Assembly (NCBI GenBank): GCA_964553015.1 | Contig: CAZKJE010000002.1 | Coordinates: 14,175-78,174, forward strand | DNA: 64,000 nt | Direction: 5' to 3' | Source: an uncultured Candidatus Saccharibacteria bacterium | GTDB taxonomy: Bacteria; Patescibacteriota; Minisyncoccia; Phycocordibacterales; UBA9973 | In this document: in pieces, positions 548 through 56,947 of the stretch | How the letters are laid out: each line of letters begins with the position of its first letter | Numbering within the stretch: position 1 is the first letter of the stretch | Program-made: the position numbers and the translations under genes | Notes under the pieces: model-generated | What the model was told of the DNA's origin: nothing | The model's input: only the letters and a program-made list of their open reading frames with translations | Database searches by the model: none

Positions 548-2140
548 GTGGCTTTTGCCAAAATATACTCAGCGCAAGTAAATTTACTTACCGGAGCTAT
601 CGTAACTATAGAAGTGGATCTCTCCCGAGGCCTGCATTCTTTTAGTGTCGTCGGCCTGCCGGACAAAGCAGTCGATGAATCTAAAGACAGGGTATCGGGC
701 GCGATAAAGAATTCCGGTTTCCAGTCCCCGAAGGCAAAAAATCAAAAAATAATTGTTTCTCTTTCACCGGCCGACTTAAAGAAAGAGGGGCCATTTTTTG
801 ATTTAGGAATTGCCATCTCGTACATGAAAGCAGCGGGAGATATTAAATTTGATTCCGAGAAAAAAATATTTTTAGGCGAGCTAGGCTTGGACGGCACACT
901 TCGCCCTATCCGCGGAGCTTTGCCTTTGGCGCAGGAAGCCAGACGGAAAGGATTTGAAGAAATATATCTGCCGAAAGAAAATGCCTCCGAGGCGGCCTTG
1001 GTGGAAGGTATTAAAATTTTTGGCGCTGAAAGTTTGCAGGAAGTCGTGGAGCATATCGATGAGTATAAAAGACCCCCTCTGTCCGATAAAAATAGGACAT
1101 CTCCCCCTTCGCAGGGGGCGAGGAATAAAATTCCGGTCCAGCCGCAGACAAAAGTAAATTACAAAAAAGAAACAAAGGGCGCAGACTTTTCTGATATTCG
1201 CGGACAGGAAGGCGCCAAGCGCGGGCTCGAGATCGCGGCCGCCGGCGGGCATAATATAGCGATGTATGGCCCGCCCGGCACAGGCAAGACGATGCTGGCC
1301 CGGGCTTTTTCGCAATTGTTGCCGGATCTGCCAATTGATGAAGTACTTGAGCTCACGGGAATACATTCTGTGTCCGGCAGCACGCAAGGGGAGCTTGTGT
1401 GCTTTCCCCCGTTTCGCGCCCCGCACCACACTTCTTCTTATGTTTCTATTATCGGCGGGGGAACGTATCCAAAGCCAGGAGAGGTTACACTCGCGCATCG
1501 CGGCGTTTTATTTCTAGACGAGTTTCCGGAATTTGAGAAGAGGGTTATAGAATCTTTACGGCAGCCGCTTGAAGACAATATCGTTTCCATTTCCCGCGCC
1601 AAGGGCACAGCAGTCTTCCCTTCAAATTTTATTTTAGTGGCCGCCATGAATCCCTGCCCGTGCGGAAACGCTGGGAACAAACAAAAGGCCTGCATCTGCA
1701 AGCCGTCCGATTTAGACAGATATAAAAGGAAACTTTCCGGTCCGATTATAGACCGTATTGACCTCTGGGTTTCAGTCGGCAACGTGGATTATAAAAAACT
1801 CGGCGCAAGTGACGATGAGCGGAACGCAGAGAAAAGTGAAAAAATAAAAGATAGAGTTACCCTAGCCAGAGAAATTCAAAAAAAGAGATTTCAAAAATTT
1901 ACAAAAAAAATCAGCACAAACAGTGAAATGAATGTGAAAGACTTAGGCACGATGGCAAAACTCGATGCAAAAGTTCGCGAACTCTTAGACAACAGTGCCG
2001 AAAATCTAGGCCTGTCCGCTCGCGCCTATCACCGCGTAATAAAAATAGCCCGCACTATTGCCGACTTGGAAAATTCTGAAAACGTAGAAGCGAATCATAT
2101 CTTAGAGGCCATTCAATATAGGCCAAAAGTTAACTCATAG
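548..2140 (+). CDS. comM: YifB/ComM-family Mg-chelatase-like AAA+ ATPase (competence protein ComM)
   Basis: 530 aa, GTG start. N-terminal Lon-like domain, Walker A GPPGTGKT and C-terminal ChlI-like domain. Carries an in-frame GC-rich hairpin insert at about 1101-1123. Confidence 0.85.
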   Translation: MAFAKIYSAQVNLLTGAIVTIEVDLSRGLHSFSVVGLPDKAVDESKDRVSGAIKNSGFQSPKAKNQKIIVSLSPADLKKEGPFFDLGIAISYMKAAGDIKFDSEKKIFLGELGLDGTLRPIRGALPLAQEARRKGFEEIYLPKENASEAALVEGIKIFGAESLQEVVEHIDEYKRPPLSDKNRTSPPSQGARNKIPVQPQTKVNYKKETKGADFSDIRGQEGAKRGLEIAAAGGHNIAMYGPPGTGKTMLARAFSQLLPDLPIDEVLELTGIHSVSGSTQGELVCFPPFRAPHHTSSYVSIIGGGTYPKPGEVTLAHRGVLFLDEFPEFEKRVIESLRQPLEDNIVSISRAKGTAVFPSNFILVAAMNPCPCGNAGNKQKACICKPSDLDRYKRKLSGPIIDRIDLWVSVGNVDYKKLGASDDERNAEKSEKIKDRVTLAREIQKKRFQKFTKKISTNSEMNVKDLGTMAKLDAKVRELLDNSAENLGLSARAYHRVIKIARTIADLENSENVEANHILEAIQYRPKVNS

Positions 2141-3076: not shown

Positions 3077-3091
3077 ATAAGATAGGAAATC

Positions 3092-3118
3092 AAAAAATCC
3101 CCCGAATGGGGATTTTTT
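3092..3118. terminator. bidirectional intrinsic terminator between lexA and hup
   Basis: AAAAATCCCC-GAAT-GGGGATTTTT hairpin flanked by A and T runs between two convergent genes. Confidence 0.7.
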
Positions 3119-3166
3119 GATTTCCTAATTTCTCTCGAGAGAACCCCACTTGGCGGGGCAGGAATA

Positions 3167-6144: not shown

Positions 6145-6159
6145 GTAGCACAACAACAT

Positions 6160-6215
6160 CGCTCGCTCTGGGCAAGAAGACTCGTCTTCTGCTTCGGGCG
6201 AGTTTTCTTTTTACC
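6160..6215 (+). terminator. intrinsic terminator / possible attenuator upstream of the pyr operon
   Basis: Nested GC stems (GCAAGAAGAC-TCG-TCTTCTGC inside CGCTCGC...GCGAG) followed by TTTTCTTTTT. A second weaker hairpin lies at about 6222-6255. Confidence 0.5.
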
Positions 6216-6275
6216 TCCTTGCCCTGCTTAGCGGGGCTTGCTTCTCTTTTTTAAAGTGCTACTATTTTACCTAAT

Positions 6276-7523
6276 GTGTCTAATGAAATACGTAAAAATA
6301 TGCCAAGAAAAATGATAAGTGTAGAAGGCAACATAGTAAATAAAGATAAAGTTTTCCGCGGAAGAATTGAAATTGATCAGAGCGGAATGATAGATAAAAT
6401 CGGCGAACCGAAAGGTGACGCCGATTTTATTTTTGAGGATGAATTAATTTTTCCCGGATTCATAGATCTGCATGTGCATGCGCGGGAAGATGCAAGCCAC
6501 ACGCAAGATTACAAAGAAGATTTTATCTCCTCGGGAGTTGCGGCGATAAGCGGCGGAGTGACAGCATTTGCAGAAATGCCGAACAATCCAGTACCGCCGA
6601 TTGATGATAAAAGTTACGCAGAAAAAAAAGAATTAACTAAGAAATCTCCAGTTCCAGTTTTACTTTATGCAGGCATCGGCCCTAAGACAAAACCGCTTTC
6701 ATCAAAAGTTCCGTACAAAGTTTTTATGGGTAAATCTGTCGGCGATCTTTTTTTTACAACACTGGAAGAATTAGAATCAGTAATAAAAAATTACAAGGGA
6801 CAATACGTGAGTTTCCACTGCGAGGATCCGGAAATTCTGGAAGAAAAAACTCATGAGTTAACTCATGAGTTACAGCGCCCCAGAGAAGCTGAAATTTCCG
6901 GAATAGATTTCGCGCTCAAATTAATAGAAAAATATAATATTTTTGGAAAAATTTGTCATGTATCTACGATAGGAGGAATACAAAAAATTATTGAAGCAAA
7001 AAAAAGAGGGGTAAATGTAACAGTAGAAGTAACTCCGCATCATTTGTATTTTGCGAAAGCAAATAAAAATTTACAAGTCAATCCGCCCATACGTGATGTA
7101 GAAGATTGTGCGGCTTTAATAAAACTTTTGAAACGAGGCGATATTGATTTTCTTGCTACCGACCATGCTCCGCACACAAAAGAAGAGAAGAAAAAAGGAG
7201 TTTCAGGCATGCCGCATTTAGATACTTACGGACCGTTTATCGCATGGCTTATAAAAGAACACGGTTTTACGCAGGAAGAAATTGCGAGAGTATGCGCATA
7301 TAATCCGGGTGTTTTTTTAAATAGTTTTATGCCTGAGAAATATGGAGAAACAAAAGAAGGCTACGTTGGCTCGCTTACAGTAATAAATATGAACAAGCCA
7401 GTAAGGATAAAAAAAGAAATGCTTAAAACGAAATGCGGCTGGTCGCCTTTTCTGGGGGTGACATTTCCGGGAAGCGTTACTATGACAATAGTAAAAGGAG
7501 AAATTTATGAAAACAGAAAATAG
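6276..7523 (+). CDS. pyrC: dihydroorotase
   Basis: Amidohydrolase motifs DLHVHARE and DHAPH. GTG start preceded by the extended -10-like TGCTACTAT. Confidence 0.85.
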   Translation: MSNEIRKNMPRKMISVEGNIVNKDKVFRGRIEIDQSGMIDKIGEPKGDADFIFEDELIFPGFIDLHVHAREDASHTQDYKEDFISSGVAAISGGVTAFAEMPNNPVPPIDDKSYAEKKELTKKSPVPVLLYAGIGPKTKPLSSKVPYKVFMGKSVGDLFFTTLEELESVIKNYKGQYVSFHCEDPEILEEKTHELTHELQRPREAEISGIDFALKLIEKYNIFGKICHVSTIGGIQKIIEAKKRGVNVTVEVTPHHLYFAKANKNLQVNPPIRDVEDCAALIKLLKRGDIDFLATDHAPHTKEEKKKGVSGMPHLDTYGPFIAWLIKEHGFTQEEIARVCAYNPGVFLNSFMPEKYGETKEGYVGSLTVINMNKPVRIKKEMLKTKCGWSPFLGVTFPGSVTMTIVKGEIYENRK

Positions 7524-38566: not shown

Positions 38567-39070
38567 TTATTTTTTCTCTATTGTTATGGTTAAACCCTTC
38601 GGACCCTTTTTATAACTGTCTGAAACTTTGTAATCTTCGGTAATTAAATGCAATACTCTATCTAAGCGCTCCCTTAAAAATTTTTCATCCATATACTTCG
38701 CGCGTCCCGCGAGGAAAAGTTCTACTTTGATCCTATGGCCTTCCTTGATCCACCTGGATGCCGTTTTGGCTTTTAGTTCGAGGTCGTGATCTCCGGTGCC
38801 TATTTTTATCTGAATGGATTTCGTCTCGGTCTTGTTTGCTCCGGCTTTGGCCTTTTTTAATTTCTTTGCGGCTTCGTACTGATATTTGCCAAAATCCATT
38901 ATCTTGGCAACCGGCGGATTGCCGGTAGGACCAATCTCAATTAAGTCTAAACCCTTACTTTGCGCTAATTCCAAAGCATCTCTTATGCTTAAAACACCTA
39001 AATTTTTATTTTCACTATCCAGAACCCGAAGTTCCTTGGCCCGTATTTGGTTGTTTATTCGTTCGCGCAA
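38567..39070 (-). CDS. infC: translation initiation factor IF-3
   Basis: IF3 N and C domains. Forms the infC-rpmI-rplT operon. Confidence 0.9.
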   Translation of the reverse strand: MRERINNQIRAKELRVLDSENKNLGVLSIRDALELAQSKGLDLIEIGPTGNPPVAKIMDFGKYQYEAAKKLKKAKAGANKTETKSIQIKIGTGDHDLELKAKTASRWIKEGHRIKVELFLAGRAKYMDEKFLRERLDRVLHLITEDYKVSDSYKKGPKGLTITIEKK

Positions 39071-39145
39071 TTGATATTAGTAGCAAAATAGACTTATGAA
39101 ACTACAAGAAGGATAATAGCGTAACTAAACCATAAAGTCAATTTG

Positions 39146-39535
39146 TGGAGATGGGGGAAATTGAATCCCCGTGCAGAAGGTTTTTGCAAAGAAGTCTACA
39201 TGCGTAGCGCGCTTTTTGTTTTAAATTAAAAAATTATGAAACGCGCCAAATATTTTTTAACCGAGTTCTTTTGTTTTGCGAGAGCGTCAGAACAGGCGTT
39301 CAAGCTATCCCGATAATGTTATGCCTCGTCTTATATATCGGAAGTCTATAAGAGAGACACCACCTCAGGCTTACGCGAAAGATGGAGCGAAAGCGAGCGC
39401 ATTACCGAAGTAAGGCGAACGCATTGCTGTGAAAGCTGATTTTGCAATTAGCTGTTGAACGAATTTTTACGAGATTACGTTCATTCTCGGCATGCATCAA
39501 TAACAAATGGCCAACTGTCTATGCCTTGCATCCCC
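39146..39535 (-). ncRNA. ssrA: transfer-messenger RNA (tmRNA)
   Basis: 5' end GGGGAUGCAAGG...GCAUGCCGAG...CUCGUAAAAA shares the PK1-region strings with E. coli tmRNA. 3' tRNA-like end with T-arm GGGGA-UUCAAUU-UCCCC and acceptor CAUCUCC-A pairing with the 5' GGGGAUG. Lies next to smpB. Predicted tag ORF is GCA AAA ... GCG UAA. Confidence 0.75.
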
Positions 39536-39546
39536 ATATTTACTTT

Positions 39547-39993
39547 TCAACGTCCTTTAAAATCTCGGCGAATCTCGCGATCAGTGTCACGCTTTTTTAG
39601 AGTTTCGCGTTTATCAAATTTTTTCTTGCCTTTCACCAGGGCAATTTCCAATTTGATTTTCCTGCCTTTATTATACACTGAAATCGGCACTATTGTCAAA
39701 CTTTTATTCTTCTCGCTGCCTTGTAGCTCATTAATTTCTTTTTTGGTCAGCAAAAGTTTCCTATTGCGCAGAGGATCATAATCTTTTGGCGCATTTTTTG
39801 CCTGATATGGAGGTATGTTGGCATTGATCAGGTATGCTTCGCCGCCGCGTATAATTACAAAAGCCCCCTCGAGCGACATCTGACCCGTTCGTACAGCTTT
39901 TACTTCTGTTCCCAAAAGCTCAATACCGGTTTCGTGCTTTTCTAGGAATTCATAATTGAATCGCGCTTTGCGGTTTTCTGTATAACTAGCCAT
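39547..39993 (-). CDS. smpB: SsrA-binding protein SmpB
   Basis: 148 aa, typical SmpB sequence (GIELLGTEVK ... ). Confidence 0.9.
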   Translation of the reverse strand: MASYTENRKARFNYEFLEKHETGIELLGTEVKAVRTGQMSLEGAFVIIRGGEAYLINANIPPYQAKNAPKDYDPLRNRKLLLTKKEINELQGSEKNKSLTIVPISVYNKGRKIKLEIALVKGKKKFDKRETLKKRDTDREIRRDFKGR

Positions 39994-40129
39994 AGCTTTA
40001 TCTTAACATAACTTTTCTTTATTTTATGATGACTATGATTCTATGTGCTTAATTGATAGTAAATTTGACTCAAATTTTCTAAAGTGTATAATCTAGGTAT
40101 TATTTTTATAATTAAATCTTGAAAAAACT

Positions 40130-40642
40130 ATGAAAAATATAGAGAACGCGGGGCGTCTTTCCGAGGAAAAAGCTCAAAAGGAAGCCAAAGCAATTCAAGG
40201 TATGTCAGAGTTTAGGTCTTACGAGGAAGGCTACAAGAATCCAACAGCAGAACATTATGAAAAATCCTCAAAACATTTGGATAATCTAAAAGGGATAAGT
40301 TCTAAAGTTGCAGAGCTTTTTATAGAAGCAGCCGGACTAGGAAAGGATTTGAGAGATGAAATGGGTCCTGAAACACATAGGATATTTGAAATAGCCCAAA
40401 GAGATATTGTCCAACGCCTCAGATTAGAGGGTCTTTTTCTAAGATTGGGTAGTGAAGATCCAGAAGAAGAAAAAGAGAATATGGATTATATTCTTTCCAG
40501 ATGGGACAATGAGATTCGTTCAGATGAACGCATTAAGGATGTTTTCTTAGGGAAAGAGGAATTACTTAATAGGACAATAGAGTTTACTAAAAAGCACACC
40601 TTTCAACTTCTTGCTGGTATTAAGATAGAGATAGGAGAGTAA
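40130..40642 (+). CDS. hypothetical protein
   Basis: 170 aa, charged and helical, no recognisable motif. Confidence 0.55.
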   Translation: MKNIENAGRLSEEKAQKEAKAIQGMSEFRSYEEGYKNPTAEHYEKSSKHLDNLKGISSKVAELFIEAAGLGKDLRDEMGPETHRIFEIAQRDIVQRLRLEGLFLRLGSEDPEEEKENMDYILSRWDNEIRSDERIKDVFLGKEELLNRTIEFTKKHTFQLLAGIKIEIGE

Positions 40643-40716
40643 TATAAAAATTTTATAATTAAATCTCGCTTTTCGGTGTAATGAGACATAACTTTATATT
40701 AACATAGATTTTTATT

Positions 40717-40849
40717 CCCCTCTTGAGGGGTGGCTCGCGTGCAAGACGGGGTGGATAATTTACCTCACCCTGCTGCCCTCTCCTGTAAAGGGGAGGGGAA
40801 AATTCATCCACCTCCCTCCGACCCATGTCGGAGTACTCCTCAAGAGGAG
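40717..40849. repeat. GC-rich hairpin cluster / miniature element related to the CCCT-loop-AGGG family
   Basis: Bounded by CCCCTC-TT-GAGGGG (40717-40730) and CTCCTC-AA-GAGGAG (40836-40849). Internal hairpins include CCCTCTCC-TGTAAAG-GGGAGGG. About 55% GC in AT-rich intergenic DNA. Confidence 0.45.
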
Positions 40850-40926
40850 AATTTTTTACTCATATACTACTCTAATCCTATAAATAAGGGTTTTTTGACT
40901 TTGCTAGCAACAAAGTGTAAAAATGC

Positions 40927-40954
40927 TTGACAAAAAATGTAGATATGCTATGAT
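40927..40954 (+). promoter_or_regulatory. sigma70-like promoter TTGACA-16-TATGAT
   Basis: TTGACA at 40927-40932 and TATGAT at 40949-40954. Confidence 0.5.
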
Positions 40955-40960
40955 ATAAGC

Positions 40961-41250
40961 ATCTCATAGATTTTATTTGATTTAATATGAGGTCAAGAGA
41001 TTGTTTCGTATAGTCTCTTGCATATCCCTAAATCAAATGTAGTTTCTCAAAAACGATTAGCGAATTGAGAGATTTTCGCTAAAAACGCTTGAGAAATGAA
41101 GAGCTGAAATCTCTCTGGGTCTGGAGCGCTCGGGTTACCTTTAGCTCTTTGATCCATCTGTTGGTAAAAACCCGAACATCATCGCCGTCGGTTCGAAACA
41201 ACCCTCGGCACCCCACCCAAAGCTTCGGCCGCGGGTGGGTTTTTATTTTT
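40961..41250 (+). ncRNA. candidate structured ncRNA of unknown class (about 290 nt) with its own promoter and terminator
   Basis: Long imperfect inverted repeat at 40972-41045. Nested stems TTTCTCAA...[GCGAA-TTGAGAGATT-TTCGC]...TTGAGAAA. Terminal GC stem CCCACCC...GGGTGGG followed by TTTTTATTTTT. No ORF with a plausible start. Confidence 0.35.
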
Positions 41251-41301
41251 ATACTGAATTTTTTATTTCACATTTTGGGTTTTTTGTGCTATTATCTCAA
41301 A

Positions 41302-43230
41302 ATGGATTTAAATTTTCTTAACAATAAAACTGGCGACAAAGGGCGAAAGAAACTTCCGAAGCCGACGAAGTTCAGTGGGAATATTTTAGGCGCGATAATT
41401 TTTTTCATGCTCATCACTGCGCTTTACTTGGTGGTAGCAGGAGACCAAAAAACGGTTCCAGAAATTCCAATTTCCGACCTGGCGCAAAGCGTATCTGCGG
41501 GAGAGGTAAAAAATATTTTAGTTTCCGGAGACAAGCTCACCATCACGTACAAAAACGATCAAGTTAAGACATCCAAGAAAGAAGTGGGCTCGGCGCTGTC
41601 GCAGACACTTTTTAATTATGGGGTGCCGCCGGAAGCACTTGCGCAGACAGAAATAGAAATAAAAAACGAAAGTGGATTTGCGTACTGGCTCGTAAATATT
41701 CTGCCGTTTCTTCTGCCGGTAATTTTTATTCTGTTGTTTTTCTGGTATTTATCACGCCAGGTAAAAGGCGCAGGCATGCAGGCGTTTACTTTCGGACAAT
41801 CCAAGGCCCGCATCACAGATCCGAATGATAAAAATAATAAAGTTACTTTCAAAGACGTGGCCGGAGCCAAAGAAGCGAAGGAAGAATTGAAAGAGATTGT
41901 AGACTTTTTGAAAAGTCCGAAAAAATTTCTGGATATTGGCGCAAGGATTCCAAAAGGTGTAATGCTGACAGGAGCCCCGGGTACAGGAAAGACGCTGCTC
42001 GCTCGCGCTGTAGCAGGCGAGGCCTCCGTGCCGTTCTTTCATTTATCCGGCAGCGAATTCGTGGAAATGTTCGTTGGTGTCGGGGCTTCGCGTGTGCGTG
42101 ACCTATTTAAAATGGCTAAAAAAGCTGCACCGGCCATCATATTCGTGGATGAAATAGACGCTATCGGGCGCACGAGAGGGGGAGGCTTTGGCGGCGGGAA
42201 TGATGAACGCGAGCAAACCTTGAACCAGATTTTGGTGGAGATGGACGGCTTTGAACCGAACGATAAAGTGATAGTCATGGCGGCTACAAACAGGCCGGAC
42301 GTCCTCGATCCGGCGCTCATTCGCCCGGGACGTTTTGATAGAAAAGTAATGATAGATCTTCCGGATCGCGCTGACCGCGAAGAAATTTTAAAAATTCACG
42401 CTGTTAAAAAACCTCTCGCCGAAGATATAAATTTGAAATTAATTGCCGAACGTACACCTGGTTTTTCTGGCGCCGACCTGTATTCGCTCATGAACGAAGG
42501 TGCGATACTCGCCGCACGCGAGAACCGCAAGAAAGTTTTTCAATTTGATCTCATACGCGCGATAGAAAAAGTAATGCTCGGTCCTGAGAGGAAGAGCCAT
42601 TTGCTTTCCAAAAAAGAAAAAGAAATTACTGCGTACCATGAAGCGGGTCATGCGATCGTCGCATCAGTTTTACCTCACGCAGATCCCGTTCATAAAGTTT
42701 CTATCATCTCCCGCGGAAACGCCGGAGGATACACTTTGAAGCTTCCGCTTGAAGAAAGGCGATTGCAATCTAAAAAAGAATTTATAGATGACATTGCGAT
42801 GTCGCTCGGAGGATATGTGGCCGAGCAGATGATGTTCGGAGATATCACGACTGGTCCGTCAAGCGATTTGCAGGCAGCAACAAACATTGCGCGCGCCATG
42901 GTGACGCGCTGGGGCATGTCGGACATTATCGGACCGATAGCCTTGAACGATTCTCCCGGCCGTTCTATGTATGGAGGAGAAACAGTAGAAAAAGAATTTT
43001 CCGAAAGTGTTTCTACTAAAGTAGATGCTGAAGTTTCAAGAATAATTAGTGATGGGCTAAAGTCTGCGCAAATCGTAATTACCGAAAACAAAAAAGCCTT
43101 TGAGGCTATAGCACAAAAACTCATAGAAGTTGAAACCATAGAACAGGAGGAATATGAAAAAATTCTCATAGCGCACGGAATTATCTTAAAAAAGAAAGAA
43201 GTCATAGCTCCACCGGAAGGTACAAAGTAA
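41302..43230 (+). CDS. ftsH: ATP-dependent zinc metalloprotease FtsH
   Basis: Start refined to MDLNFLNNK. Two TM helices, AAA+ module (GPPGTGKT) and HEAGH zinc motif. Extended -10 TGCTATTAT lies 6 nt from the ATG. Confidence 0.9.
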
Positions 43231-43323: not shown

Positions 43324-43998
43324 ATGGCGAGAAAACAAGATAAACAAAGCGTTTTGGCTATGCGCAAGAGAGGAATGAGCTACAGCCAGATCAAAGGGAA
43401 AATAAAAATAAGCAAAAGCACTTTGAGTGTCTGGCTTAAAGATTTACCACTCGATGAAAAACGGATAAGAGAATTAAGAGACAATAGCCCTATTCGTATT
43501 GAAAAATTCAGAAATACAATGCGAGCAAAAAAAGAGATGAGACTTTATGAGGTATATAAAAAAGTCGCAAATGATATTTGTGATCTCTCAAAAAGAGATT
43601 TATTTTTAACAGGCTTGTTCTTATATTGGGGAGAAGGCACGAAATCACAAAATTCTTTAGTTGCCCTCACAAATACAAATCCAGCCATGGTTAAGTTTTT
43701 CATACAATGGCTAAAATTGTTTGGAGTAAAAAGCAAAGATTTGAAAATTAAACTACATTTATACTCCGATATGAAAATTAAAGAAAGTCTTGATTTTTGG
43801 TCAAAAGAGCTTAATATTCCGATAAGCCAGTTTTATAAGCCGTATGTTAAGAAAAATACTCTCAAATCTATCTCGTATAAAAATGGCTTTGGAAAAGGAA
43901 CATGTAGTGTTATATTTGGGAGTAGAGATCTTTGGGAATATATAACAATGGGATTGAAATATATTTCTGAAATTAGTAATGAAAATTTCCGCCCCTAG
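43324..43998 (+). CDS. hypothetical protein with N-terminal helix-turn-helix
   Basis: N-terminus RKRGMSYSQIKGKIKISKSTLSVWLK is HTH-like. The C-terminal 150 aa are unassigned. The stop overlaps the tRNA 5' end. Confidence 0.55.
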   Translation: MARKQDKQSVLAMRKRGMSYSQIKGKIKISKSTLSVWLKDLPLDEKRIRELRDNSPIRIEKFRNTMRAKKEMRLYEVYKKVANDICDLSKRDLFLTGLFLYWGEGTKSQNSLVALTNTNPAMVKFFIQWLKLFGVKSKDLKIKLHLYSDMKIKESLDFWSKELNIPISQFYKPYVKKNTLKSISYKNGFGKGTCSVIFGSRDLWEYITMGLKYISEISNENFRP

Positions 43999-44061
43999 CT
44001 CAGTTGGTAGAGCAATCCGCTTATACCGGATCGGTCCTTGGTTCGAGTCCAAGGGGGCGGA
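43989..44061 (+). tRNA. tRNA-Ile with anticodon UAU
   Basis: 73-nt cloverleaf. Acceptor CCGCCCC/GGGGCGG, D-arm GCTC-AGTTGGTA-GAGC, anticodon arm ATCCG-CTTATAC-CGGAT with U33 and A37, variable loop CGGTC, T-arm CTTGG-TTCGAGT-CCAAG, discriminator A. CCA is not encoded. Confidence 0.75.
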
Positions 44062-44063
44062 CA

Positions 44064-47749: not shown

Positions 47750-49957
47750 TTACTCGAAGTGAAACTCTCCGGCTTTGGTGCGGACTTTTTGTTTTAGGAG
47801 AGGATATTTACTTAGTTCGGGGTCAGATTCTATCATGCTAATAGCTTCAGTTCTAGCCGCTTCTACCATTTTTATATTTTTTATAGCTTCCATGCCGAGA
47901 TCAGTGATGCCCCACTGCTTTGTACCGCCAAGCTCTCCGGCGCCTCGGAGTGTGAGATCTAGCTCTGCCAATTCAAAACCATTTTTTGCAGTCTTGAGCG
48001 CTTTAAGGCGGTCTACGGTTTTTGCGCTTTTGGCTTCAGCAAAAATATAACAATATGCCTGATGCGAACTTCGGATCACCCGTCCGCGGAGCTGATGCAA
48101 TTGGGCCAATCCAAAACGCTCCGCACCTTCTATGATAATTATTGTCGCATTTGGAACATTCACTCCGACTTCTACCACGGACGTAGCGCATAAGATATGT
48201 ATCTTGCCTTCGGTAAATTCCTGCATTACCTCTTCTTTTTTTTCTCTGCTCATCTTGGAATGAAGTACGCCTATTTCATACTCTTTGAACACTCGCTCTT
48301 TTAATATTTTAGCTTCAGCTACGGCAGATTTTACATTTAAAGCCATTTCTTTTTCAGGATCAGGCTCAAAAATTCGCGGGCAGATGACGTAGAGCTGTCT
48401 ACCGGCCTCCAATTCTTTTCTGATTGCTTCGTAAGTGTTAGTCCTCTTGTCCGGAGTAATAATCTCTGTAATTATTTGTTTTCTTCCTACCGGCATTTCG
48501 TCTAAAAGCGACAGATCCAAATCTCCGTATATCGTGAGCGCGAGCGTGCGGGGGATAGGAGTTGCGGTCATGGATAGCAGGTGCGGAGCGATGTTATCTT
48601 TGCGCACTAACTTTCTTCTTTGTGCTGTGCCGAAGCGATGCTGTTCGTCTATCACCACAAGTGCAAGATTTTTAAATTTAACAGTTTTTTGAATGAGCGC
48701 ATGTGTACCGATAAGTATAGGTATCTCGCCGTTTCCGATCCATTTCAAAAGTTGTGCTCGGGAAATTGTTGTCCAGCTTGCCCCGTCCTTGGCGGGACCG
48801 ATTGTTTTTGATGGAAATTTTCTGCAGCCACTTCCAGTGATCAAGCCTATGTTTATCGGCAAATGCTTGAAATATTCTATGAAAGATTCAAAATGTTGCG
48901 TTGCTAATATTTCTGTCGGCGCCATGTATGCCACTTGCAAATTACCAAAATTTTGTGGTTTACCCTGGGTGTAATCGAAGGGCCTTTGCTGTACTGTCAC
49001 ATAGCTTGCAGTCGCAGCTACAGCAGTTTTACCGGAGCCGACATCGCCTTCGAGTAATCGCGACATCGGAAAATTCTTTGCCAGATCAGCAAGTATCGTT
49101 GCGATGGATTTTTCTTGTGATTTTGTCGGTTTAAAAGGGAAGCGCTTCAGAAATTCTTCTGCACTTTTCTTTTCAGGTTTTATTTGAAAAGATTTATTTT
49201 TTCTATATTCAAATTTATCATGCTGGCGTTCCAGCTGAATACAGAATACTTCTTCAAAAGCGAATCGTTTGCGTGCCGACTGCGCATCGGCTTTATTTTT
49301 CGGTTTGTGTATCCAAATAAGCGCGGTTTTCAGAGTAGGCAAATGATATTTTTTTAAAATTTCGGCCGGAATATAATCTTCAATATTATCCAAAGTTTTT
49401 TCTTTAAATATTTTTTCAATTGCGTGGTAAAACCATTTGGAAGTGATACCTCGCGTCTCCGCATAAATTGGATAAGACAGACCCTCCCCCAACCCCTCCC
49501 TTCGCAGGGCGGGGCTTTTAAATAATGTGTCGTGCGAATCTATCGGCATATTCGGCAATTTTTCAAATTCCGGATTAGCAAGATACATGCCATTTTTGCC
49601 TTGCGTGACTTTGCCCGTCAGCTTCACATTTTCGCCGTCATGGATCATTTTTGCCAAGTAAGTCTGATTGAACCATGTGATTTTTATTTTTCCAGATAAA
49701 TCTTCTATTTCGCCTTCGCCCATGGGCATTTTTGAACGAAATCCTTTTTTGGTTTTCAATTTTGAAACTTTGCCATATACAGTAGCCATATCTCCGGCAA
49801 CTAATTCAGCAATATTCTTTACCTCGCTGATATCGCTGTAGCGGACAGGGAAGTGAAACAAGAGATCAGCCACAGAAAAAATCTTGAGCTTATGCAAAGC
49901 CCTTTTCTGGCTTTCATCCAGCCTGAATTTTAGTTCAAGCTTATCGCTTAAATTCAT
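47750..49957 (-). CDS. recG: ATP-dependent DNA helicase RecG
   Basis: Wedge domain plus helicase motifs (GDVGSGKT, DEQHRFG). Start refined to MNLSDKLELKF, since the longer ORF overlaps pilA. Carries an in-frame GC-rich hairpin insert at 49481-49515. Confidence 0.85.
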   Translation of the reverse strand: MNLSDKLELKFRLDESQKRALHKLKIFSVADLLFHFPVRYSDISEVKNIAELVAGDMATVYGKVSKLKTKKGFRSKMPMGEGEIEDLSGKIKITWFNQTYLAKMIHDGENVKLTGKVTQGKNGMYLANPEFEKLPNMPIDSHDTLFKSPALRREGLGEGLSYPIYAETRGITSKWFYHAIEKIFKEKTLDNIEDYIPAEILKKYHLPTLKTALIWIHKPKNKADAQSARKRFAFEEVFCIQLERQHDKFEYRKNKSFQIKPEKKSAEEFLKRFPFKPTKSQEKSIATILADLAKNFPMSRLLEGDVGSGKTAVAATASYVTVQQRPFDYTQGKPQNFGNLQVAYMAPTEILATQHFESFIEYFKHLPINIGLITGSGCRKFPSKTIGPAKDGASWTTISRAQLLKWIGNGEIPILIGTHALIQKTVKFKNLALVVIDEQHRFGTAQRRKLVRKDNIAPHLLSMTATPIPRTLALTIYGDLDLSLLDEMPVGRKQIITEIITPDKRTNTYEAIRKELEAGRQLYVICPRIFEPDPEKEMALNVKSAVAEAKILKERVFKEYEIGVLHSKMSREKKEEVMQEFTEGKIHILCATSVVEVGVNVPNATIIIIEGAERFGLAQLHQLRGRVIRSSHQAYCYIFAEAKSAKTVDRLKALKTAKNGFELAELDLTLRGAGELGGTKQWGITDLGMEAIKNIKMVEAARTEAISMIESDPELSKYPLLKQKVRTKAGEFHFE

Positions 49958-56640: not shown

Positions 56641-56883
56641 AGTGGAGTCAAATTGCACGCCTGAGTAGTTTGAAAGGAAATCCAAATGAGCTCTGAGTCA
56701 CGGTCACCCAATTTCCCAAGGCAGATGAAGCGGTATTGGTGGATGCGAAGGACACCACCGCCTCCATACCCCGTTCTCCGGCGCTTGCGCCTAGTGTTTC
56801 AGAACCACAACAGCGCAGTGTCACTTTCGGTCAAGGGAGTGATTCAGAGACATCTCGTGCGAGGCTAATCACTCCGCAGACCC

Positions 56884-56920
56884 GCGGGCACACCCGAGTG
56901 CCCGCTTCGTTTTTTCTTTT
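56884..56920 (+). terminator. intrinsic terminator 28 nt upstream of ileS
   Basis: GCGGGCAC-ACCCGA-GTGCCCGC hairpin followed by TTCGTTTTTTCTTTT. The extended -10 TGGTATATT at 56927-56935 follows. Confidence 0.6.
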
Positions 56921-56947
56921 GATATATGGTATATTTTCTTTACATAT

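Follow-up and report, generated by a model that had tools for sequence, protein, structure and literature searches.

Stand-alone small RNAs (sRNAs) of bacteria commonly have a narrow phylogenetic distribution, and prophages carry 'moron' cassettes, which are promoter-gene-terminator units inserted between conserved genes. Here we describe a segment that can be set beside both, found in a 64-kb stretch of DNA (the window) from a genome of Candidatus Nomurabacteria (Paceibacterota, candidate phyla radiation). This segment, which we call unit B, lies between smpB and ftsH and runs from a promoter to an intrinsic terminator; ssrA proper lies about 1.4 kb upstream on the opposite strand (Table 1). 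In the reading that we prefer, and that we hold about as firmly as we doubt it, unit B is an independent, self-terminating, orphan sRNA-like cassette. Because it sits in an insertion seen only in this Nomurabacteria genome, it can be no more than an orphan small-RNA gene; it is neither a conserved class of RNA nor a leader of ftsH. Should it be both transcribed and functional, it would join the very few candidate small RNAs from reduced genomes of the candidate phyla radiation, and it would be an RNA-only 'moron-like' cassette gained by insertion beside essential quality-control genes.

Table 1. Coordinates in the window of unit B, its parts and the neighbouring features.
Feature	Position	Strand	Remarks
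infC	38567-39070	-	
tmRNA (ssrA)	39143-39535	-	Rfam match, 119.6 bits; intact
smpB	39547-39993	-	
Lineage-specific insertion	40017-41264		1,248 bp, between smpB and the ftsH promoter; replaces 13 nt of L083
ORF170 (orphan, 170 aa)	40130-40642	+	Own promoter TTGACT-16-TATAAT at 40065-40092
smpB 5' remnant	40648-40712		About 65 nt; degenerate direct duplicate of the smpB 5' end and upstream region (original at about 39948-40016)
GC-rich element A	40714-40858	+	
Unit B (promoter to terminator)	40927-41250	+	
Unit B promoter	40927-40954	+	-35 TTGACA 40927-40932; 16-nt spacer; TG 40946-40947; -10 TATGAT 40949-40954
Hairpin P1	40974-41039	+	AT-rich; 27 bp in three segments; -22.1 kcal/mol; z = -5.31; 0/200 shuffles as good
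Hairpin P2	41042-41097	+	19 bp; -17.6 kcal/mol; z = -3.82
GC-rich tail of unit B	41098-41211	+	About 50% GC; small predicted hairpins P3-P5
Predicted hairpin P3	41116-41156	+	
Predicted hairpin P4	41159-41178	+	
Predicted hairpin P5	41184-41209	+	
Unit B intrinsic terminator	41212-41250	+	CCCACCC/GGGTGGG 7-bp stem 41212-41239; inner GC-UUCG-GC
ftsH promoter and ATG	41267-41304	+	TTCACA-17-TGnTATTAT 41267-41295; ATG 41302
ftsH	41302-43230	+	
Helix-turn-helix ORF	43324-43998	+	
tRNA-Ile	43989-44062	+	Rfam match 43989-44061

Promoter, hairpins and terminator of unit B

An earlier note on this DNA had proposed a TTGACA-16-TATGAT promoter followed by about 290 nt of nested inverted repeats that close on a GC stem and a U-run, and all of these elements are present. 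The promoter scores 11/12 and carries an extended -10 (TGn), with a predicted transcription start near 40960. Over both strands of the window six sites score at least 11/12, as against 1.7 ± 1.2 in composition-preserving shuffles, and the other five all lie upstream of genes or of the tmRNA; in this genome, a match of at least 11/12 is therefore highly predictive.

The stretch from 40960 to 41250 folds as a whole at -91.9 kcal/mol (z = -4.72), a value that none of 200 shuffles equalled, and its minus strand folds more weakly (z = -3.96). In a scan with 150-nt sliding windows (1704 windows, mean z = -0.28, sd 1.25), those of unit B ranked second (z = -7.36) and tenth (z = -5.06). The minimum free energy (MFE) shape is a row of separate hairpins, P1 to P5, followed by the terminator, and the individually significant pieces are only the AT-rich P1 and P2. 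P1 is the hairpin that the note had placed at 40972-41045 with 26 bp, here slightly shifted and with 27 bp; it is more stable on the plus than on the minus strand (-22.1 versus -15.4 kcal/mol) because of its 7 G-U pairs. P2, with arms TTTCTCAA..TTAGCGAA and TTCGCTAA..TTGAGAAA, contains the GCGAA/TTCGC pairing that had also been noticed, and since it folds equally on both strands it may be an inverted repeat at the DNA level. Pieces of the GC-rich tail folded alone gave z values of -1.3 and -2.0, without significant structure in the shuffle test. The terminator stem is followed by TTTTTATTTTT (T5AT5) at 41240-41250; it folds at -16.2 kcal/mol and accounts for 84% of the ensemble, and the terminator piece taken alone gave z = -1.9. 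Direct repeats within the region pair 41040-41058 with 41290-41308 and 40918-40934 with 41080-41096, and by a rough estimate they are compatible with chance in AT-rich sequence.

Promoter, hairpins and terminator can be read directly in the DNA, and the lack of coding signal, the borders of the insertion and the conserved ftsH promoter beyond it are likewise shown by the analysis; transcription, the stability of the RNA and any function are inferred. The near-consensus sigma-70-type promoter, with its extended -10, would give a transcript of about 285 nt that folds into two long AT-rich hairpins (P1 and P2) and a GC-rich tail, and that would end at the intrinsic terminator, about 20 nt short of the -35 element that belongs to ftsH. 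The product would most likely be a small RNA that stands alone as an orphan and may act in trans or bind protein, and the terminator would shield the ftsH promoter from read-through from the two strong promoters upstream. When duplex energies were computed between unit B and 48 translation-start regions of the window, no pairing target stood out (best z = -1.8).

Several other spots in the window are structured. A near-consensus promoter lies at 2161-2189 (TTGACA-17-TATACT); after it, within 2161-2260, comes the GC-rich pyrimidine/purine hairpin ACCCCTACCCGGCCTCTCCCTAAAGTAGGGGGAGGAGAAAGGAGGGGGT, which precedes a small ORF starting at about 2279. The core of this hairpin, CTCTCC..TAAA..GGGGAGG, looks like the hairpin in the middle of element A (40778-40796), and a perfect DnaA-box-like TTATCCACA lies just upstream of the promoter, at about 2143-2151. 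Perfect long hairpins at about 13845-13880 (within 13840-13885) and about 3080-3122 (within 3080-3125) look like bidirectional terminators. A 279-nt stretch of 51% GC at 56669-56947 (within 56660-56960) ends in a GC hairpin and a T-run upstream of a 1166-aa ORF; strongly structured windows occur at 6151-6450, and a very stable local fold at 49126-49275. None of these long hairpins, stretches and folds has a match in Rfam.

The insertion and the ftsH promoter in related loci

FtsH-based retrieval yielded 80 GTDB ftsH loci together with the three closest relatives, whose FtsH proteins are 90-92% identical; one of the three was judged from its gene map only, and the searches for homologues of unit B covered 86 related loci. 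In DNA alignments to two relatives (L083 and L091), homology ends at about 40009-40016 and resumes exactly at 41265, level with the -35 of ftsH, so that the 1,248 bp in between are an insertion. ORF170, the remnant of smpB, element A and unit B all lie within it. Unit B would have been gained in this lineage-specific event, which may also have brought, or later received, ORF170 and element A. The two junctions of the insertion both carry ATTTTT(T)AT, which is AT-rich and ambiguous as a target-site duplication. The smpB remnant retains an apparent extended -10 promoter and an ATG on the minus strand, antisense toward ORF170.

ORF170 encodes an all-helical protein whose AlphaFold model (pLDDT 81) is a helical bundle without a significant match in the PDB, and the protein belongs to no Pfam, NCBIfam, PADLOC or PHROG family. 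Its single homologue among about 5.8 billion protein clusters, P0002, comes from a Logan assembly and is 57% identical. The gene for this homologue (L081, L082) lies beside adk/map, not near ftsH, and has no RNA-like neighbour; a link between ORF170 and unit B was accordingly dropped. Element A has a GC content of 53-55% and a three-way-junction fold (-70.4 kcal/mol, z = -5.05), and is bounded by two similar palindromes, CCCCTCTTGAGGGG and CTCCTCAAGAGGAG, with a T-run after the second. It probably serves the ORF170 unit as structured 3' end and terminator, although an RNA or a MITE-like element of its own is another possibility. Rfam gave no match for it, and no homologue turned up in the related loci, the window, the phage and plasmid collections or the pattern scans of IMG/VR and JGI metagenomes.

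In 84 related ftsH loci, those of the three closest relatives among them, the syntenic site lacks unit B. Searches of the 80 GTDB loci, L081-L083 and L091 by blastn and nhmmer, with element A, unit B and the whole insertion as queries, matched only ORF170 and the smpB remnant; this comparison covers the loci themselves, and homologues of unit B may exist elsewhere in the genomes of relatives. The earlier note had made conservation in relatives a condition of its own proposal, and on this point the proposal fails.

What adjoins the ftsH promoter upstream varies among the relatives: the start of smpB in L083, L005, L010 and L036, the 3' end of the tmRNA in L001-L003, L006 and L091, and unrelated cargo in some others, with other unrelated ORFs at the junction in L004, L011, L012, L015 and L017. 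In L009 (2700-3000), and probably in L047, a small ORF that by eye looks GIY-YIG-like in translation lies directly upstream of ftsH and replaces the usual promoter block. Between infC and ftsH, the smpB-tmRNA cassette points either way, also among relatives whose FtsH proteins are 90-92% identical: tmRNA(-) smpB(-) in the window (39140-40009) and in L083, smpB(+) tmRNA(+) in L091 and the P0003 contig. This suggests that the cassette has been inverted repeatedly. In L091 an rve-family transposase lies beside smpB. By these comparisons, the smpB-ftsH junction is a hotspot of lineage-specific insertions and cassette inversion.

Such a setting bears on a second reading, in which unit B is an inert relic of inserted or rearranged DNA: its hairpins would be DNA-level inverted repeats from a mobile element or from illegitimate recombination at such a hotspot, its promoter and terminator would be fortuitous or left from a lost gene, and any RNA made from it would be functionless. 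We entertain this reading tentatively and consider it nearly as likely as the orphan-sRNA reading. It agrees with the restriction of unit B to this lineage, inside an insertion that holds a 65-nt duplicate of the smpB 5' end, at a spot where L009, probably L047, and five further relatives carry unrelated cargo, where a transposase adjoins smpB in one relative and where the cassette is inverted between close ones. The strand symmetry of P2, the lack of significant structure in the GC-rich tail and the lack of a homologue of unit B in any collection searched also fit it. It fits less well with a near-consensus promoter, given that such matches are rare here and otherwise always associated with genes, with the clean promoter-to-terminator architecture, or with a P1 that folds clearly better on the plus strand. 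Also against it is the lack of terminal inverted repeats, of a clear target-site duplication and of a further copy within the window, and the insertion encodes neither transposase nor integrase. Set against the features of a MITE or IS-derived element, namely terminal inverted repeats or subterminal hairpins, a target-site duplication and multiple copies, unit B is single-copy in the window and the related loci, and element A is bounded by similar palindromes.

Only 6 nt separate the end of the ftsH promoter from the ATG, and the unit B terminator lies upstream of this promoter. The promoter is ancestral and outside the insertion, and most of about 25 relatives inspected keep it, whatever adjoins it upstream. 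Since it ends so close to the ATG and is conserved in this way, the ftsH mRNA is probably leaderless or nearly so. Read by eye in the window and in L083, smpB too appears to have an extended -10 (about 39994-40016, minus strand); the promoters of both genes (TGnTAnnAT) end 6-8 nt before the ATG, which implies leaderless or nearly leaderless mRNAs. The FtsH proteins of relatives begin at the equivalent of the ATG at 41302, and DNA homology begins at 41265; the ORF starting at 41089, a 713-aa ftsH call, is an over-extension of ftsH. The earlier note had anticipated both this over-extension and an extended -10 of ftsH's own six nt from its ATG. As the evidence stands, it is for annotation that unit B mainly matters, through this over-extended call, the conserved promoter that drives ftsH and a junction prone to insertion and inversion.

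That note had also allowed for an unusually long regulatory leader, in which the terminator at 41212-41250 would be modulated, by attenuation or as a riboswitch, with read-through into ftsH. Unit B does lie directly upstream of ftsH on the same strand, and alternative pairings exist within it (41067-41080 with 41102-41115, and 41165-41173 with 41237-41245). However, none of them provides a convincing antiterminator that overlaps the 5' arm of the terminator, and no riboswitch, T-box or leader family of Rfam matches. A leader would lie within the 5' UTR, below the gene's only promoter, and would be conserved upstream of orthologues. Instead, ftsH has its own conserved extended -10 promoter downstream of unit B, and the relatives, in which that promoter abuts smpB or the tmRNA 3' end, have no such leader. 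We therefore regard a leader as very unlikely and do not retain this part of the note.

Coding tests and searches for homologues

Small ORFs are present in unit B, at 41079-41216 (minus strand, 45 aa) and 41047-41157 (minus strand, 36 aa), together with the open frame at 41089-41301 (plus strand), and they could suggest that unit B is no non-coding RNA but codes for a small protein or holds a type I toxin-antitoxin pair. Searches with the small ORFs of both strands found no Pfam or PHROG match, and their peptides are hydrophilic and not toxin-like, so that the small hydrophobic toxin ORF that a type I pair combines with an antisense RNA is not found here. Each of the six frames of unit B has a coding score under the 5th percentile of windows that are truly coding. 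The minus-strand ORFs have no promoter, and the plus-strand frame has no ATG and crosses both the unit B terminator and the ftsH promoter. We consider this reading extremely unlikely, in agreement with the earlier note, which had seen no credible ORF. Nor is there a sign of a decayed gene: the GC-rich tail scores negative in six of six frames and has no tblastx remnant, and tblastx of element A and unit B against the related loci and the window gave no match.

Searches for a known or conserved RNA were likewise negative. Among the 4227 models of Rfam 15, at gathering thresholds, the only matches were the tmRNA and the tRNA of Table 1, with none in unit B. At E ≤ 10, queries of 801 nt and 301 nt returned only sub-threshold noise from eukaryotic miRNA, snoRNA and scaRNA families, the best at 23.4 bits against a gathering score of 49; the earlier note had seen no obvious RNase P P4 or SRP domain IV strings. 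Phage and plasmid collections gave no match to element A or unit B (blastn, distant mode). Scans of the collections pick up near-exact matches, and homologues at about 80% identity may exist beyond them. In IMG/VR, 16-21-mers from unit B and element A found nothing or chance 16-18-mers. In JGI metagenomes, two patterns of exact bases and R/Y positions, which would miss relatives below about 90% identity, found nothing in one case and two chance matches in the other. A single-sequence covariance model of the unit B 3' domain, run over 648 kb, had only one match, of 21 bits, in L007. We rejected it as a homologue: it is a look-alike terminator with a UUCG loop (1351-1390, minus strand), made of the hairpin TTCACTCAGAGCTTCGGCTTTGGGTGAA and a T-run, and it shares the AGCUUCGGC UUCG-loop design with the unit B terminator. 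Terminators of this style may recur in Nomurabacteria without homology.

A conserved structured non-coding RNA would be recognised by homologues with compensatory changes, and none appeared in the 86 related loci, the phage and plasmid collections, IMG/VR or the JGI patterns. What weighs against the sRNA reading is the lack of homologues in the collections searched, and with it of covariation and evidence of selection, together with the absence of unit B from the three closest relatives, a GC-rich tail without significant structure, the strand symmetry of P2 and the lack of a standout pairing target among the 48 start regions. Of the independent sRNA gene that the earlier note had put forward, the independent promoter-to-terminator unit stands, and a conserved structured RNA class does not. 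A bolder form of the proposal would make unit B the first of an undescribed class of structured RNAs in Patescibacteria: a mobile promoter-RNA-terminator cassette, alone or with ORF170, that inserts between smpB-ssrA and ftsH, perhaps acts on the genes of trans-translation or on FtsH, and has homologues elsewhere in Nomurabacteria. We regard this as very unlikely.

We also considered whether unit B is a highly diverged and relocated housekeeping RNA, such as a tmRNA pseudogene, 6S RNA, RNase P, SRP RNA or an intron-containing tRNA. Two observations could suggest it, namely that relatives whose cassette is turned the other way have the tmRNA directly before the ftsH promoter, and that GGTTCGAAAC at 41190-41199 is superficially T-loop-like. 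Yet none of these families matched in Rfam, even at E ≤ 10 with relaxed filters, ARAGORN was negative at unit B, local alignment of unit B to the tmRNA of the same genome and to that of L001 stayed within the range of shuffles, and the real tmRNA is intact at its own position. The fold, moreover, is a string of hairpins and not a 6S-type rod with a central bubble. A housekeeping origin is scarcely credible on these grounds. As individual candidates, tmRNA and tmRNA pseudogene, which would show a tRNA-like domain, a tag reading frame and similarity to ssrA, were rejected on ARAGORN, alignment and Rfam. 6S RNA, for which a rod of about 180 nt around a large central bubble would be expected, was rejected on the different MFE fold of unit B and the lack of a 6S match at E ≤ 10.

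Unit B beside known systems

With the tmRNA, unit B has its place in common, in that it too would be a structured RNA gene immediately upstream of the ftsH promoter, as in relatives arranged smpB(+)-ssrA(+)-ftsH, but it has no similarity to tmRNA in sequence or by covariance model. An attenuation leader or riboswitch would show the same succession, with a promoter, about 250 nt of structured sequence and then a terminator, all on the strand of the next gene; unit B differs in that ftsH has its own promoter after the terminator, in that no aptamer matches, and in that it is not conserved at orthologous loci.

Compared with stand-alone sRNA genes, unit B is longer, at about 285 nt, than typical base-pairing sRNAs, and it comes without a homologue, an identified target or seed, or a known chaperone context. 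It nonetheless has what marks such a gene, namely its own promoter and intrinsic terminator around a non-coding stretch, and it resembles these genes in its near-consensus promoter, its lack of an ORF, its 5' stem-loops, its 3' GC hairpin with U-run, and its intergenic position between unrelated genes.

The comparison with moron cassettes concerns the insertion as a whole. Here the host locus is chromosomal housekeeping DNA, free of phage genes and of matches in PHROG or phage databases, and the second cassette, unit B, has no protein gene. The likeness lies in two back-to-back autonomous units, ORF170 with element A and then unit B, set between the conserved smpB and ftsH. A strong promoter opens each unit and a terminator-like end closes it, their composition is unlike that of the surroundings, and close relatives lack them.
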